64,000 nucleotides of DNA from a virus (IMGVR_UViG_3300028293_000005:1-64000); one strand, 5' to 3'. Numbered from the stretch's first letter, positions 3,480 to 37,793 are shown. The notes: generated by a model from the letters alone, not told the origin. Numbers and translations are program-made.

Positions 3480-3509
3480 TTGACTTTTGACCGTGGCGCC
3501 CCACTTATT
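3480..3509 (+). promoter_or_regulatory. promoter motif TTGACT-N16-CACTTATT
   Basis: 6 nt before ATG 3516. Confidence 0.7.
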
Positions 3510-3515
3510 CATTGT

Positions 3516-3671
3516 ATGGACCCGAAAGACATCGAGCGCCAACTTTTCAAGTGTGCGCCGCAGGCTGCCAAGGACCTGAACGCAAAGGCCAAGAAGCTAA
3601 TACGCGCAACGAAACGCAAGCAATGGTGGGACGCACACGCGACTGACCGAGCACGCAAACCCCTGGGCTGA
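3516..3671 (+). CDS. small basic hypothetical protein
   Basis: MDPKDIERQLF; directly after promoter. Confidence 0.6.
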   Translation: MDPKDIERQLFKCAPQAAKDLNAKAKKLIRATKRKQWWDAHATDRARKPLG

Positions 3672-3674
3672 TTT

Positions 3675-5183: not shown

Positions 5184-5456
5184 ATGAGCCAAAATGACAC
5201 ACCCCTGCCCAGCGGAACGGGAACCCCATGCCCGGTCTGTGGCAACCCCATCCCCCCAGCCCCGCGCTATGCGCTTCTCTACCGTGACCATCACTACGTC
5301 ATCAAGGACGAGGTCCTCGACCTGAATCTCTTTTTCCTGGCAGAGTCCGGCTTCGGACCGAGGACCTCGGACATCGAGCTGGCGGAACGAGTCGTGGCGT
5401 TTCTCAACCAGACAGAACCGTCGCTTAACAATCGGTCAGGAGGTCCCACTTCTTAG
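5184..5456 (+). CDS. hypothetical protein with CPVCG zinc knuckle
   Basis: CxxC motif. Confidence 0.6.
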   Translation: MSQNDTPLPSGTGTPCPVCGNPIPPAPRYALLYRDHHYVIKDEVLDLNLFFLAESGFGPRTSDIELAERVVAFLNQTEPSLNNRSGGPTS

Positions 5457-8154: not shown

Positions 8155-8540
8155 AGACCAAAGTATCAAAGAAAAAACTAAAGAAGGCCCGAGTAAAGTC
8201 GCCGGCCCGCACCCATATCTTTTACCCGCCTGTCATCCAGGCCGACGGGCCGAACGTCCGGTCAGTCGCCGAGCTGGAGACGCCGCACCTCTTCTTCTGG
8301 AAGACGAAGGCCGGGGAAATCCTTCGCCTCACCGACATGCAGCTCGACCACCTGCTCAACGCGAGGTCCCTGCTGCGCCGCCGCATCGTCCGGATGAATC
8401 AGGTCGAATTGGTGATGACCCGCGAAATCCGCAAGCGCACCGGTTCGGAGTTGAAGTTGTATGGGGCGCGTCTCACGACTACGTGGTGCAAAGGTTCTCC
8501 AACGTGTGGTCGGAAATCCACCACACTCAAGACGCGGTGA
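8151..8540 (+). CDS. conserved phage protein (WKTKxGExxxLxDMxxDHLxN type)
   Basis: Recognisable phage motif; function unknown. Confidence 0.65.
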   Translation: MKTKVSKKKLKKARVKSPARTHIFYPPVIQADGPNVRSVAELETPHLFFWKTKAGEILRLTDMQLDHLLNARSLLRRRIVRMNQVELVMTREIRKRTGSELKLYGARLTTTWCKGSPTCGRKSTTLKTR

Positions 8541-8568
8541 GCAAACTGCAATCGAAACGGGGCAACCG

Positions 8569-9270
8569 ATGAACGTGTTCGCTTACTACCGCGTGTCGTC
8601 CTGGGAGCAGGAAGACAAGACCGGGTTGCCACGACAACAGGACGTCGTCGCGAAGTTTGCCGCCGCGAATCAAATGGCAATCGTTCGCGAGTTCTCCGAG
8701 GTGCAGTCCGGCGGCGTGGACTTCGACGACCGCATAATGCTGGCAGCCATGCTCGACGAGGCTAAGACCATCGGCGCGGAAGCCATAGTGGTCGAGCGGA
8801 TTGACCGTCTCGCGCGCGACCTCATGGCCCAGGAAGTTTTCCTGCGCAGCGCGACCACCAAGGGCATCAAGGTTTTCACCGCGGACTCCGGTCAGGATAT
8901 GACCAACACCGATGACCCGAGCCGCGTTATGTTTCGTCAAATTATGGGAGCGTTATCACAGTGGGAAAAAGCAGTCATCGTGAAGAAGCTGCAGGACGGT
9001 CGGCGCCGGATGGCCGAGAAGACCGGGCAACCATGCGGAGGCCCGCCGCGGTATGGGTTCCATCCGGACCCCAAGGTGCGCGAGCGTCAGCGAGAGGTAA
9101 TCCGCCGCATCAAGCAGGCTCGCGCCGATGGGTTTTCCCACGCGCAAATTGCCGGCAGCCTGCGCGCAGCGGGGTTCGCCCCGCCGAACAGCGAAGTCTG
9201 GCACCGCGCAACGGTTTACAAATTATCCAAAGTGAACCTTGACAATCCGCCTGAAGGCGGCACTTATTAA
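8569..9270 (+). CDS. small serine recombinase (resolvase family) with C-terminal DNA-binding region
   Basis: AYYRVSS catalytic Ser, E-x-x-SG, VVERIDRLAR, EK..IV.KL..GR, PRYGF. Confidence 0.9.
   Translation: MNVFAYYRVSSWEQEDKTGLPRQQDVVAKFAAANQMAIVREFSEVQSGGVDFDDRIMLAAMLDEAKTIGAEAIVVERIDRLARDLMAQEVFLRSATTKGIKVFTADSGQDMTNTDDPSRVMFRQIMGALSQWEKAVIVKKLQDGRRRMAEKTGQPCGGPPRYGFHPDPKVRERQREVIRRIKQARADGFSHAQIAGSLRAAGFAPPNSEVWHRATVYKLSKVNLDNPPEGGTY
9239..9268 (+). promoter_or_regulatory. promoter motif TTGACA-N16-CACTTATT
   Basis: Overlaps recombinase 3' end; no ORF follows until 9857. Confidence 0.75.
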
Positions 9271-9274
9271 GGGA

Positions 9275-9850
9275 CAGTTGCTCTTTGACAATTTCTTGGC
9301 CTCCCAGAAAACCGGGAGCGTGCATAGCGTTAAAAGCCAAGATGTGTGCGACCCTTCGGGGCCGCATCCGTCAGCTGACGTCTCGGGACGAAAAATATCG
9401 AGACGACCAAAGTCCTGCAACACAGTGCGACGGCACTCAGCAGGCCGGGAGGACATCCGGTTAGCTACCGCCTCCCGCTAATCTTAGTGGGTTCCTTTCG
9501 GGACCCCCGGTATAAAGAGCCCGGCGGCTAGGGCCACGATAGGGTCCACCAATTTTGGACGCAAGGCAGCCCGCGACGGCGGACGGGACGAGGATACCTC
9601 CAACCCGTGAGACCAAAAGTAAGGCAACAGTGCTTCTGTTGCTCCGGTAAGAACCCGGCGTGTAGGGTCCCGATAGCATCCACCAATTTTGGCAGAACGG
9701 AACGTTTTGGCCGCGCACCCAAGGGTCCGGCAAAGGGCGTTTTAGATTCCGGCCTGCCAGCGGGGAAATGGCGACACACGGGCGCAGCCCAGAAGGGAAA
9801 CCCCGTCGCCCGCAGAGTCGGCGTTACAGGCTCCAATAAACACGCCCTTT
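9275..9850 (+). ncRNA. candidate large structured non-coding RNA / leader upstream of terL
   Basis: Many stems incl. C(UUCG)G and G(GAAA)C loops; two ~50-nt imperfect repeats ending TCCACCAATTTTGG; boundaries approximate. Confidence 0.5.
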
Positions 9851-9856
9851 ACTTTT

Positions 9857-11788
9857 ATGGCGCTGGCCGAGACGCACCCTGTTAAAGGGTTGTTGCGGGA
9901 GACCGCGAGACTGATTCACGGCGGTGACGTGTTCACTGCCGCGCGGCTGGTCCGTGCCTGGGCCGCGCAGAGCAACCCGGAAATTTCCAAGCAGTCCGTC
10001 GAGACCAAGAAGAAATCTTACGAGATGCTCACGCTCCTGTTGCATTGGGCGCTGAACAACGGAGCGACCGAAGAGGCCGCTCAACTTCTCTGGACCCCTA
10101 ACCAGTTCGACCCCCGCCCGCACAACACGCAGCGGGTTTGGTCCGCGTTCGACGAGCAGGACTTTATTTTGCTGATGGGCGCCGGCAAGCAGTCGAAGTC
10201 TTTTTCGATGGCAATCCGGCTTTTTCTGGAATGGGTCCGCGACCCGGAGTATACCTCGATTCGCGTGCTGGGGCCTAGTGAAGACCACCTGGAGCAAAAC
10301 CTTTTCTCGCACCTCGTCACGCTTCACCGGGAGTCCGCAATCCCTCTCCCGGGCGAGATTGGCAAGCTGTTCATCGGGCTAGACCAGCGCGCGAAGCGGG
10401 GCTCGATTACCGGCGTGGTGATTCCTCAAGGCAAGAAAGCCGCCGGCCGGCTGCAGGGTGTCGCGCGGTTTCGGCGCAAGAAGCCTCATCCCCTGTTCGG
10501 CGAGACGTCGCGGCTGTTCGTGTTCGTCGATGAAATTTCGAACCTCCCGAAGGGGCTGTGGCACGACATCGACAACTTGCTGTCGAACGCTTCCGGCAAG
10601 GGCGGGCTGAAGGTGGCCGGCGCGTTCAACCCCTCGGACCGCAACGACGACGTGGGCGTGCGCGTGGAGCCACAGTTCGGCTGGGCCAGTTTTGACCCGG
10701 ACTTGCATTTTGATTGGATGTCTACGCGCGGCTGGTGGACCGTCCGGCTGGACGCGATGCAGTCCGAAAACATCAAGCAAAAGCGCGAGGTGTATCCCGG
10801 CATGCAGACCTACGAGGGCATGCAGCAGATTATCGCCAACGCTGGCGGGCTCGACTCGCCCGGGTATTGGACGATGGTGCGCGGCTGCTTCCCGCCGCTG
10901 GGCATGGTTCTCGCGGTGATTCCCTCGGGTCTCACCACAACCTGGAAAGCCGAACCGATTTGGTATGACACGCCCACGCCCGTCGGTGGCGCGGACTTGG
11001 CACTCGAAGGCGGCGACACGTGCGAATTCGCCAGCGGACTTTTCGGCCGCGCGTCCGCGGTGAAGATGCCCCCGAGCCTGGAGTTCCCCGGCGGACAGGT
11101 CGTGTGGTTCTACGACCGCAACGGGCACAAGGCGCCCCGGCACCTGCTCCTGGCACAAAAGATTTTTCACATTCCGAAAGGGGACACCTTCACGATGGGC
11201 GACGCGATTATGCGCCTCGCGCGGGAGCTGCATATCAAGCCGGAATACCTCGCGATAGACCGGACCGGCAACGGGCAGGGCGTGTTCGACTATATGAAGG
11301 TCAAGGGCTGGCGCTGCCACGGCGTGAACTTTTACGAGAGCGCCAGCGAGACGCGCATCATGGCCGAGGACGAAGCGACTGCGAAGGAACTCTACGACCG
11401 GGTGAACAGCGAGCTTTGGTTCGCGGTCAAGCGATGGCTGGAGTTTCGGTTCTTATACGTGGCCCTCGGCATGGACGTCGCGGACCTCACGGGGGAGTTG
11501 ACGGACCGGCTGTTCCGGATGGTTGGGAAAAAGTCCCACGTCGAATCCAAGCGCGACTGGAAGTCTCGCCACGCCGGCAAGTCGCCGAACCTCGCCGACG
11601 CGTTTACGCTGTTGATTCACGCCGCGCGCAAGGGAAGCGGGTTCATCCCATCCATGGCCGGCGACGACTCGATTGAACCCACAAATGTGCAATCCTCGGA
11701 ATGGGACCCGCACGCCCGCGACCTGGGATGCGACCGGGTGAACCGGTTCTATGATTTGGATACCGCGGACGAGGATTTAGAATTGTGA
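9857..11788 (+). CDS. terL: terminase large subunit
   Basis: LLMGAGKQSKS Walker A variant, FVFVDE Walker B, GADLA, IDRTGNG, SPNLADA nuclease motifs. Confidence 0.85.
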   Translation: MALAETHPVKGLLRETARLIHGGDVFTAARLVRAWAAQSNPEISKQSVETKKKSYEMLTLLLHWALNNGATEEAAQLLWTPNQFDPRPHNTQRVWSAFDEQDFILLMGAGKQSKSFSMAIRLFLEWVRDPEYTSIRVLGPSEDHLEQNLFSHLVTLHRESAIPLPGEIGKLFIGLDQRAKRGSITGVVIPQGKKAAGRLQGVARFRRKKPHPLFGETSRLFVFVDEISNLPKGLWHDIDNLLSNASGKGGLKVAGAFNPSDRNDDVGVRVEPQFGWASFDPDLHFDWMSTRGWWTVRLDAMQSENIKQKREVYPGMQTYEGMQQIIANAGGLDSPGYWTMVRGCFPPLGMVLAVIPSGLTTTWKAEPIWYDTPTPVGGADLALEGGDTCEFASGLFGRASAVKMPPSLEFPGGQVVWFYDRNGHKAPRHLLLAQKIFHIPKGDTFTMGDAIMRLARELHIKPEYLAIDRTGNGQGVFDYMKVKGWRCHGVNFYESASETRIMAEDEATAKELYDRVNSELWFAVKRWLEFRFLYVALGMDVADLTGELTDRLFRMVGKKSHVESKRDWKSRHAGKSPNLADAFTLLIHAARKGSGFIPSMAGDDSIEPTNVQSSEWDPHARDLGCDRVNRFYDLDTADEDLEL

Positions 11789-12094: not shown

Positions 12095-12312
12095 AGGCCG
12101 TCAAGCGGGTGATTGTGGCCGCGGCCACCGGCTCCAAAGTATTCGTGGGGCCGGAGATAGCCGCCCAGCGATTGGACGCCTGCCACCGGTGCCCGCACTT
12201 CAAGCCGAAGACCCGGCAGTGCGGGCTGTGCCTTTGTTTTGTGGACACTAAGGCCAAGCTGACCACGGAGTCCTGTCCGGACCATCGATGGGTTATCACG
12301 AATGTAGGTTGA
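12052..12312 (+). CDS. Cys-rich zinc-binding protein (CxxC...CxxCxC...CP)
   Basis: QRLDACHRCP...CGLCLCFVDTKAKL...CPDHRW; start 12052 or 12061. Confidence 0.7.
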   Translation: MHVMQKIKAVKTAIKAVKRVIVAAATGSKVFVGPEIAAQRLDACHRCPHFKPKTRQCGLCLCFVDTKAKLTTESCPDHRWVITNVG

Positions 12313-21202: not shown

Positions 21203-21651
21203 AGTGCCCCCGTTGTAATTGTGACAAGCCGCCAGAGGACTTCGGCAAGGACCGCAGCCGCCCGAATAGGCATCAGACTTATTGCAAGCCTTGTGCGGTT
21301 GAAGTTCAAGAGGAGTATTTGGCACGCAATCCCGCCCAGGTCGAAGAAAATAAGCGGCGCGTTAAGGCGCGTCGCGATGAATTGGGCCGGAAGTTCAACC
21401 TTCTTAAAGCGGAACGCGGATGTTATGACTGTGGAGGACATTTTCCGCCGGAGGCCTTGGATTGGGACCATCGCCCAGGAACAGTCAAGCTGTTTCATGT
21501 TTCGGACTCTTATGGAACCCGAAGCTTTGAATCCATCGTGGATGAAATAGCAAAATGCGACCTCGTGTGCGCGTGTTGTCATAGGGTTAGAACGAAAAAG
21601 CGAATGGCACTTGACAAATCGATAAATTTCTTCACTTCTTCAGTGACCTAA
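21199..21651 (+). CDS. HNH homing endonuclease (CxxC...DxDH...KCDLVCACCHR family)
   Basis: Paralog of 58416 and 60891. Confidence 0.85.
   Translation: MKCPRCNCDKPPEDFGKDRSRPNRHQTYCKPCAVEVQEEYLARNPAQVEENKRRVKARRDELGRKFNLLKAERGCYDCGGHFPPEALDWDHRPGTVKLFHVSDSYGTRSFESIVDEIAKCDLVCACCHRVRTKKRMALDKSINFFTSSVT
21611..21640 (+). promoter_or_regulatory. promoter motif TTGACA-N16-CACTTCTT (capsid promoter)
   Basis: Inside 3' end of HNH gene, upstream of capsid leader. Confidence 0.7.
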
Positions 21652-21781
21652 GGGCTTCTTGGTCGGAAGCAATCGGCCTAATCTGTCTGCGGCTGGCCGG
21701 CGCGGGCAGGGTAACTTCGCAGCCCCATTGCGAGGAAAAAACCGTAAGCGGTTCTGCCGCTTAAATTAGAAAGGCTCTCAA
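21652..21781 (+). promoter_or_regulatory. structured 5' leader of major capsid gene
   Basis: Four hairpins (21661-21678, 21683-21709, 21717-21733, 21740-21753). Confidence 0.45.
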
Positions 21782-25261: not shown

Positions 25262-25726
25262 ATGCCTTACGCAGACCCAGTGGTTCGACGCAAAAAGGGA
25301 AACGAATACTCCAGAAAATGGAGGGCGAACAATCCTGAAAAAGTTACGAAAGGGCATCGTGCTTGGAGGAAACGAAATTTGATTAGCCGGGCCGCATCCA
25401 TGCAACTCTACAGGGACAGACATCCGTTGGTGTCGCAAGTTCGGTCGCGAATCGCGAATGTTTTGTCCGGGAGAACAAAAACCGCGTCAACTCTAGAACT
25501 TCTGGCAATGCCTTGGAAGGAGTATCGAATCTATTTGCAGGGCCAGTTTCATTCTGGAATGGCGTGGAATAATTATGGTGTGCTGTGGGAAGTAGACCAC
25601 GTCAGACCTTGCGCAAGTTTTGATTTAAAAGACCCGGCACAGCAGCGGGAATGTTTTCATTGGTCTAATACTCAGCCGATGCTGACCTCGGAAAATCGGA
25701 GCAAGGGGGCACGATATGTCATGTAA
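25262..25726 (+). CDS. HNH-type endonuclease (WEVDHVRPCASFDL family)
   Basis: Paralog of 37284..37793. Confidence 0.8.
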   Translation: MPYADPVVRRKKGNEYSRKWRANNPEKVTKGHRAWRKRNLISRAASMQLYRDRHPLVSQVRSRIANVLSGRTKTASTLELLAMPWKEYRIYLQGQFHSGMAWNNYGVLWEVDHVRPCASFDLKDPAQQRECFHWSNTQPMLTSENRSKGARYVM

Positions 25727-37287: not shown

Positions 37288-37793
37288 CGCTATCTGCAAA
37301 AGAAAGAAATCGGATAGCCTGCGCGAAATACCGCGCAAAAAATCTGGAAGCTCGTAGAGCGGACGGCCGCCGACGCGAGGCGGCTAGATATGCGAACAAT
37401 CCAGAAAAGATGCGAACGCGTCGTAGAGACTGGCGAAAGGCGAATCCAGAACGGAGTCGAGAGACTTGGCATAAGTGGATGGGCACGCCGGCCAATCGAA
37501 TCGCACACAACCTTCGTCATCGAATAAAAAGTGCCCTGAAGGGTCATTCCAAGAGTAGCTCAGCTAAAACACTACTCGCAATGCCTTTGGAAGAATTCCG
37601 TATTTATATTCAGGGTCAGTTTCGTCCAGGGATGACCCGGGAAAATTATGGTAGCGTGTGGGAACTTGACCACGTAATTCCGTGTGCAAGCTTTGACTTG
37701 ACGGACCCCGCCCAGCAACGCGAATGTTTTCATTGGTCAAATCATCAGCCTCTTTTTGCGGCTGAAAACCGTTCGAAAGGAGCGAGGGTATAA
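37284..37793 (+). CDS. HNH-type endonuclease (WELDHVIPCASFDL family)
   Basis: Paralog of 25262..25726. Confidence 0.8.
   Translation: MTLSAKERNRIACAKYRAKNLEARRADGRRREAARYANNPEKMRTRRRDWRKANPERSRETWHKWMGTPANRIAHNLRHRIKSALKGHSKSSSAKTLLAMPLEEFRIYIQGQFRPGMTRENYGSVWELDHVIPCASFDLTDPAQQRECFHWSNHQPLFAAENRSKGARV

Follow-up and report, generated by a model that had tools for sequence, protein, structure and literature searches.

The 586-nt gap (9271-9856) that separates a serine recombinase gene from the large terminase gene (terL) of this virus contains no credible gene, which raises the question of what the interval encodes. The window, the whole 64-kb stretch of DNA that was analyzed, forms the opening part of an IMG/VR virus record of 73,873 bp, which is complete according to CheckV. 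A preliminary description proposed a structured non-coding locus with its own promoter. Our analysis agrees for the plus strand, with the promoter as the indication of transcription.

Relatives were collected by a terL-based search, which returned 24 viral loci with 47-93% terL identity. A motif scan of one metagenome provided two further variants of the core RNA described below (L040 and L044), along with two chance matches (L037 and L041). Blastn against 50,697 phage records gave no match to the locus, and exact-motif scans of viral contigs gave matches in the same clade only. One genome scan returned a single chance match in Chryseobacterium, and no host or prophage lead.

The gap, its flanking genes and its promoter

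The upstream ORF (8461-9270, plus strand; stop codon at 9268-9270) encodes a small serine recombinase (Pfam Resolvase PF00239, E=1.5e-23) that also matches a PHROG integrase/invertase; it provides context and lies outside the RNA. Across the relatives, a small serine recombinase (~230-317 aa) is kept upstream of terL, at most a few kb away, as terL identity falls from 93% to 47%. It is kept with or without the RNA array and was not seen in every locus (e.g., L014). Its last codons contain the phage promoter. Possible roles for a recombinase beside packaging genes include integration, concatemer resolution or recognition of DNA for packaging.

The downstream ORF (9857-11788, plus strand) encodes 643 aa and lacks a Shine-Dalgarno sequence. 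Its product had no match in Pfam, PHROG or NCBIfam, and tblastn gave weak matches only, to terminase nuclease domains. Its earlier identification as terL is confirmed by the fold: an AlphaFold model (pLDDT 76, built on 16 homologues) matched the Sf6 gp2, D6E, T4 gp17 and HK97 large terminases in Foldseek (best E=4e-12, probability 1.0). Judged by this model, the protein is a full ATPase-plus-nuclease terminase. No small terminase was recognized near terL using Pfam and PHROGs, searches that also covered ORFs replacing or flanking the array in relatives. The window gene starts that we listed generally lack Shine-Dalgarno sequences, which points to a host independent of Shine-Dalgarno pairing. 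Many starts in the window are preceded by an A/U-rich stretch, e.g., UAAUUU-AUG.

The promoter placed at 9239-9268 by the preliminary description is a perfect match to the phage-specific motif TTGACA-N16-CACTnnT. It is present as TTGACA-N16-CACTTAT at 9239-9267 on the plus strand, within the last recombinase codons, with a probable transcription start at ~9273-9276. The motif occurs at 14 sites in the window, versus 0.58 expected, and the same promoter is found at the recombinase 3' end in all six relatives checked (L004, L005, L006, L008, L011 and L040). At the copies at 5425, 12309, 29561 and 46005, an ATG lies 6-8 nt downstream, an arrangement that points to leaderless or near-leaderless mRNAs. 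Unlike these, the promoter at 9239 is 590 nt away from the next real start. After 9239, the next TTGACA-N16-CACT site is that at 12309, and the gap showed no convincing terminator. Because the promoter at 9239 is the sole one of the phage type upstream of terL, we strongly infer that terL mRNA made from it would contain the gap region on the plus strand. Downstream of the promoter, the six relatives have a leaderless ORF of small size (91-93 aa, or 238 aa in L006), the RNA region and terL, in that order. The window lacks this ORF and keeps a remnant of its last ~20 nt (alignment A7). Elsewhere in the window, the regions 21611-21781 and 3480-3674 each have a promoter copy with no obvious start codon in the next 130-165 nt, in contrast to the near-leaderless copies listed above. 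They are candidates for additional leaders or small RNAs.

The view that no credible ORF precedes terL also stands, as all ORFs of the gap are at most 102 aa, have no Pfam match and lie in reading frames that are not conserved. A small protein gene or pseudogene is suggested by one plus-strand frame that is open through the core RNA in most relatives, and by long ATG-started ORFs in L005 and L006 (frames of 143-147 aa). Within the open frame, however, variable sites number 11, 18 and 13 at codon positions 1, 2 and 3, and pairs of sequences differ by 5-18 nonsynonymous versus 0-6 synonymous codons (14 versus 4 for the window and L006). L008 differs from the window by indels of 10, 5 and 1 nt, which are not multiples of three and break the frame, the L005 and L006 ORFs overlap terL by 118 nt, there is no family match, and whole modules interrupt the frame in the window and L004. 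ORFs of 143-165 aa lie across the RNA region in L008 (3368-3865), L005 (1745-2188) and L006 (3688-4119). That of L008 (165 aa) runs through a tRNA gene, and thus long open frames arise here by chance. The substitution pattern, the indels and the Pfam result all count against a translated small ORF as the explanation of the region, which we consider scarcely credible. A practical consequence is that gene callers likely place "hypothetical proteins" of 90-165 aa across the RNA, and even across the tRNA gene, in relatives.

The core RNA and its long-range pairing

A conserved, pseudoknotted core RNA of ~170 nt occupies 9686-9853 (plus strand; nine-sequence alignment A5). Its plus-strand helices are P1 (9690-9696/9753-9759), P2 (9698-9701/9748-9751), P4 (9710-9713/9728-9731), P5 (9760-9762/9811-9813), P6 (9770-9775/9805-9810), P7 (9780-9783/9787-9790) and P9 (9820-9822/9830-9832). 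A long-range pairing (9732-9739/9843-9850, plus strand) forms a pseudoknot relative to P1/P2. In the hand-built structure, 92% of cells are paired over nine distinct sequences, compared with 30-46% after displacement of the 3' partners by 1-3 columns, in a count that had P5 one column out of register (the P5 coordinates given above come from reading the alignment). The covariation score is 0.198, versus 0.024-0.056 in the slid controls. Ten pairs changed on both sides, versus 0-2 in those controls, and the nine sequences represent ~3 lineages, such that several of the compensatory changes are single events.

P1 changes at four pairs (GGCAG/CUGCC, then GACGGG/CCCGUC, UGACAG/CUGUCA and CGACAGC/GCUGUCG), probably through several separate events. 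P6 goes from GGCGAC/GUCGCC to CGUGGC/GUCACG, including a change from A-U to G-U. The long-range helix changes from AAAGGGCG/CGCCCUUU to AAGCGGCG/CGCCGCUU and is 100% paired in nine of nine sequences. Because 9732-9739 falls inside the loop enclosed by P1/P2, this helix is either a pseudoknot or an alternative state; the best nested fold of the core found by ViennaRNA includes the long-range helix and not P1. The internal-loop sequences of the core are invariant and its stems vary. Core helices contain 13 G-U versus 6 A-C pairs, which favors the plus strand.

The support for structure is comparative, not thermodynamic, and single-sequence energies are unremarkable. Folding energy z scores are -2.1 for the whole region, -1.4 for the core, and -1.2 and -0.1 for the upstream modules M and M' described below; the minus strand is no worse, and neither strand folds better than shuffled sequence. 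No Rfam match was found in the window (cmscan, gathering thresholds) or in 9100-10000 at E<=10, using 4227 families, and the models without a match include ROOL, GOLLD, pRNA, T-box and riboswitch leaders.

The core accompanies every terL of at least 75% identity (L004, L005, L006/7, L008/9/11/12, L010, L040 and L044), and a covariance model (R1) identified it in no relative below that terL identity. The R1 search of phages with terL identity of at most 58%, including three records at least 95% complete, found no core. Core identity to L004, L005 and L006 is 92, 88 and 87%, compared with 86, 82 and 84% for terL DNA and 77, 71 and 74% for the recombinase. Between the window and L008, the values are 71% for the core and 72% for terL DNA. 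Overall, nucleotide identity in the core ranges from 71 to 92% and roughly matches or exceeds that in terL DNA.

In the window, L005, L006 and L040, 6 nt separate the 3' strand of the long-range helix from the terL AUG. Given that this phage does not use Shine-Dalgarno sequences, this location makes it plausible that the core would control translation of terL, or that cleavage would produce a short-leader mRNA. One could go further and regard the core as a cis-regulatory leader, i.e., a riboregulator of the packaging operon, a reading that overlaps with the explanation we favor below. The two states would be the long-range pairing and a local pairing of 9735-9740 with 9702-9706. They would hide or expose positions -14 to -7 before the terL AUG, or affect elongation in the manner of put-type antiterminators; the signal would be a protein, a ligand or a tRNA-like 3' end. 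Consistent with this, P1/P2 and the long-range helix each have support from covariation and cannot nest, the covarying helix ends close to the AUG, and the internal loops are invariant among varying stems. In addition, terL has no Shine-Dalgarno sequence; it also differs from most genes here, which are leaderless or coupled to an ORF upstream of them. However, another hairpin or module lies between the core and the next ORF in L008, L011 and L010, and a homing-endonuclease gene follows the core in L004 and L044, which argues against the core being only a terL-proximal device. Nor is there a match to an Rfam riboswitch, T-box or leader, and the alternative local pairing is invariant and so offers no covariation by which to judge it. 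We view the riboregulator as possible, if rather unlikely. More doubtful again is the specific proposal that the core is a cis-acting RNA switch of a new class that controls the packaging operon. Here the P1/P2 hairpin and the long-range pairing, which are mutually exclusive, would form a pseudoknot or alternative states and so gate the Shine-Dalgarno-less terL start 6 nt downstream. The invariant internal loops would sense a protein, a metabolite or the CCA ends that the upstream modules release.

The gene after the core in L004 (3508-4023) lies exactly between the core and terL and is of the endonuclease VII/HNH type (PHROG 1035, E=3e-22). No other ORF that replaces or flanks the array in relatives gave a Pfam or PHROG match. 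In L044 (reverse complement), a similar ORF is apparently present at the same place after the core, by sequence reading only. Sequences paralogous to the L004 gene occur in the window at 25427-25714 and 37365-37790. From their sequences, these copies look like a homing-endonuclease family that moves within these phages.

By analogy with phi29, the core or the array could be a packaging RNA that acts in trans in the prohead/terminase complex, as pRNA does, possibly in place of a small terminase. The core has a length of ~170 nt, adjoins terL, is as conserved as terL and occurs where no terS was identified, and more distant relatives encode an ORF of 111-184 aa, without assigned role, directly before terL. 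Adjacency alone is weak evidence, however, and there is no Rfam similarity to pRNA. Moreover, the terminase is predicted to be of the full ATPase-plus-nuclease type, and we know of no requirement for RNA in motors of this type. We therefore consider a packaging RNA very improbable.

Upstream modules and the tRNA connection

The 5' domain (9294-9477, plus strand) is common to the window, L004, L005 and L006; L008 and L011 share its last hairpin only. In part a (9294-9342), a 7-bp closing stem (9294-9300/9336-9342) surrounds a hairpin (9301-9304/9315-9318). Both helices are 100% paired in the four sequences, with one change from U-A to U-G, and the hairpin loop ranges from 5 to 20 nt across relatives while the stem is kept. 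Part b (9348-9444) comprises a UUCG hairpin (9348-9365), a hairpin at 9380-9385/9399-9404, and a compound hairpin with an outer stem (9414-9418/9440-9444) and an inner stem (9424-9428/9433-9437). The UUCG hairpin is kept in L004 via wobble pairs (alignment A7), and L005 and L006 have a different hairpin in the same place. The outer stem of the compound hairpin is 100% paired, with three of its five pairs changed on both sides. The last hairpin (9446-9477) has a conserved 18-nt interior, ACAUCCGGUUAGCUACCG (9453-9470), which is identical in the window, L004, L006, L008 and L011. Its stem (9446-9452/9471-9477) changes across relatives from CGGGAGG/CCUCCCG to CGGGUGG/CCACCCG to GCGGG/CCCGC. The poor score of one helix of the domain is due to a one-column MAFFT misalignment, as the stem is perfect in each sequence read directly.

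Between the 5' domain and the core are two modules, also on the plus strand. Module M (128 nt, 9558-9685) consists of hairpins H1 (9571-9582), H2 (9590-9601), H3 (9624-9642), H4 (9644-9658) and H5 (9665-9681) and ends in ACCA (9682-9685). Module M' (9478-9557) is a partial copy of M, with hairpins at 9489-9506, 9507-9510/9521-9524 and 9531-9535/9543-9547, followed by ACCA (9548-9551) and an AUUUUG linker. Of the 35 predicted pairs of M, which fall in five hairpins, eight changed on both sides, with only three sequences compared (window, L004 and L046). In the RNAalifold model of M, CCAA pairs with an upstream UUGG, placing the CCA in a closing stem and not at a free 3' end.

Comparison of homologues, as recommended in the preliminary description, thus reveals compensatory changes in the core (10 pairs), M (8 pairs) and the 5' domain (3 pairs in four sequences), at a depth of 3-9 sequences. 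Every stem listed in that description is present, at or within 1-2 nt of its predicted position. Those at 9446-9477 and 9624-9642 show compensatory substitutions in relatives, and the outer stem that encloses the 9424-9437 hairpin covaries. The GGGAAACCC hairpin near 9796 is present but is the least supported of the listed stems and is broken in L005.

The gaps of the relatives form a mosaic in which, based on blastn and alignments, whole modules are gained or lost as units. M' was found in the window only and is absent from L004, L005, L006 and L008. M occurs without M' in L004 and L044, and both modules are missing from L005, L006, L008 and L040. At its smallest, in L040, the locus consists of tRNA-Met and then the core directly. 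In distant relatives, the recombinase is directly upstream of terL, with no RNA and no room for such a region. The leading idea of the preliminary description, a large ornate RNA of the ROOL/GOLLD class, was rejected, given that modules are present or absent as units and that there is no Rfam match at E<=10. A single integrated fold would not tolerate a locus with only tRNA-Met and the core (L040), loci without the repeats (L005 and L006) and one with a single repeat (L004). An RNA-guided recombinase, by analogy with bridge RNAs, was also dropped, since distant relatives keep the recombinase next to terL without the RNA.

The two repeats reported earlier are confirmed, at 9515-9558 and 9649-9692 (44 nt, 84% identity, 134 nt apart). 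They are parts of M' and M, and the exact 9-mer CCAATTTTG occurs twice in the 64-kb window, in these repeats. Direct repeats located downstream of a recombinase gene and directly upstream of terL, near which no small terminase was recognized, might indicate an element that acts as DNA. The region could be the pac/cos region of the terminase or an att/res/hix-like target of the serine recombinase, with the 44-nt repeats serving as protein-binding sites. Yet relatives whose terL is 90-91% identical retain the recombinase and lack the repeats, and in distant relatives recombinase and terL lie too close together to accommodate such a region. Base pairing within the molecule is maintained through substitutions, some of which give G-U pairs; on the opposite strand these would read as A-C mismatches, and thus they fit plus-strand RNA only. 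A search for an att/res/hix-like inverted repeat in the region found three weak long-range inverted pairs only, and the distance from terL to the contig end differs among ~70-kb records, with no fixed end mapping here. A DNA-level role, including the recombinase site suggested as an alternative in the preliminary description, is quite improbable.

ARAGORN identified tRNA-Met(CAU) in the same slot in L008, L011, L039 and L040, and after the recombinase in L027, L017 and G001. The tRNA is directly before the core in L040, and before a unit X and the core in L008, L011 and L039. In the window, ARAGORN found 0 tRNA/tmRNA genes, and a search of the whole 73.9-kb record with RF00005 found no tRNA, while positive controls matched. 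The record G001 contains a copy of M that is 85% identical to that of the window, although its terL and portal DNA are only 65% identical. The G001 copy sits within a tRNA-Met array that is also between recombinase and terL, with ~3.5 kb of extra ORFs after the array.

The modules share with tRNAs only the NCCA end and the trailer. The CCA of the tRNA is followed by AUUUUGACAG in L040, where it is joined directly to core P1, by AUUUUCC in L008 and by UUUUGAC in L017. In the modules, CCA is followed by AUUUUGG (M' and M) or AUUUG (G001), and GCCA by AUUUCGA (L004). L010 has an additional module whose 7-bp closing stem is perfect and is followed by G, CCA, a linker of 7 nt and ATG. ACCA or GCCA follows the terminal stem in M', M, the L004 and L046 copies of M, unit X of L008 and the L010 module (7 bp), with stems mostly of 4-5 bp, and U precedes the next unit at these junctions. 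The 5' domain lacks a CCA end in the window, L004, L005 and L006, and the closing stem of the core is not followed by CCA. Thus, at most some junctions are tRNA-like. Of the options in the preliminary description, a precursor processed to small CCA-ended RNAs fits best, given that a true tRNA-Met occupies the same slot in relatives and shares the CCA-AUUUUG junction with M and M'; this likeness does not extend to the ends of the 5' domain and the core.

Further units, missed by ARAGORN, were observed in G001 (L046:1640-1995), downstream of tRNA-Met and M. One, an RNA of ~138 nt, combines a canonical T-arm with an acceptor-like end, GGGGCACCA. Another, of 73 nt, is tRNA-like, with a CUCCAAA loop and a weak match to the tRNA-Sec model (22.9 bits). 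Both end with CCA and a U-rich linker. In L017 (173-650; terL identity 54%), ~470 nt after tRNA-Met are ORF-free and include another CCAAUUUUCG junction and a T-arm-like sequence, GGGGUCGAGUCCCUC; this region is not homologous to the window modules. The slot between recombinase and terL seems to hold different RNA arrays in different lineages.

AU-rich trailers after CCA are sites for RNase E. Known minihelix substrates of RNase P are longer than the terminal hairpins that precede ACCA here (4-5 bp). Bacterial RNase P uses the 3' RCCA and prefers U(-1), and its substrates extend beyond tRNAs to other RNAs, among them those of phages (PMC4919922). As the relatives' tRNA-Met and the modules share the CCA-AUUUUG junction, processing at this site is the natural inference.

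The explanation that we favor, and consider reasonably probable, treats the gap as the leader transcribed at the front of the packaging (terL) operon. On this view it encodes RNA modules, each folding independently, in an array that derives from a tRNA-Met cluster and is probably processed. An ancestral, tRNA-Met-containing cluster of stable RNAs in the recombinase-to-terL slot would have given rise to the array in a family of ~70-kb, uncultured, mostly soil-derived phages. The window's phage would then have lost the tRNA, as well as the small leaderless ORF found ahead of the array in relatives. The primary transcript may be cut at AU-rich junctions by the host tRNA-processing machinery. Candidate cutters are RNase P, at the 5' side of the following unit (which has U at -1), or RNase E, acting in the trailer before trimming to CCA. 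This would release M', M and perhaps the 5' domain as stable small RNAs. The remaining terL mRNA would have the core as its 5' UTR, or would be near-leaderless if also cut after the core, resembling the messages from other promoters of the phage.

Comparison with known phage RNAs

The locus is an uncatalogued RNA family, in that it has no match in Rfam and no DNA match in the phage database, of a kind already known from phage tRNA-linked RNAs. Structured RNAs that accompany tRNA genes in phages are few, and none, to our knowledge, has a known function; this locus adds to them. Several features make it suitable for study. The promoter is defined and phage-specific, and the unit with the highest conservation directly adjoins the packaging motor gene at its start codon. 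In addition, natural variants provide a ready dissection: tRNA plus core, 5' domain plus core, and forms with one or two extra modules.

The pRNA of phi29 is similar in length to the ~170-nt core. Both are phage RNAs of similar size, and the core is encoded next to the packaging ATPase gene. There is no homology, however, and the motor here is predicted to be a full terminase with a nuclease domain.

A survey of IMG/VR intergenic regions listed 8,495 candidate structured RNAs, including tRNA-like motifs and gene-upstream motifs, with lengths of 29-151 nt (PMC10690425). The data source and kind of object are the same as ours.

Processing signals that resemble tRNAs are found in non-tRNA substrates of RNase P, in t-elements of plant mitochondria and in MALAT1 mascRNA (PMC4919922). 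The likeness is in the combination of a stem, NCCA and a short U-rich linker before a downstream unit or mRNA. The stems in the window differ in being short (4-7 bp) and without a T-loop, some junctions are without CCA, and cleavage here is putative.

ROOL and GOLLD are large structured RNAs that often occur in phages or prophages, often beside tRNA genes with which they are possibly co-transcribed (Weinberg et al., 2017; PMC5737381). The locus in the window is ~583 nt, compared with an average of 581 nt for ROOL (PMC5737381). The phage context near tRNA genes is also similar, with tRNA-Met present in the relatives' gap and absent from the window's genome. Unlike ROOL and GOLLD, the locus has no covariance-model match and comprises separable modules, not one multi-junction fold, and its universal unit is only ~170 nt.

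The tRNA cluster of T4 encodes stable RNAs (species 1 and 2, rnaC/rnaD) that are small and structured and have no assigned role. They are co-transcribed with tRNAs and excised by host tRNA-processing enzymes. Compared by description only, the locus in the window differs from these in that it is a terminase-operon leader, has lost its tRNA, and has as its largest unit a 170-nt RNA with a long-range pseudoknot. The likeness is that both consist of small structured RNAs of the phage tRNA-cluster kind.
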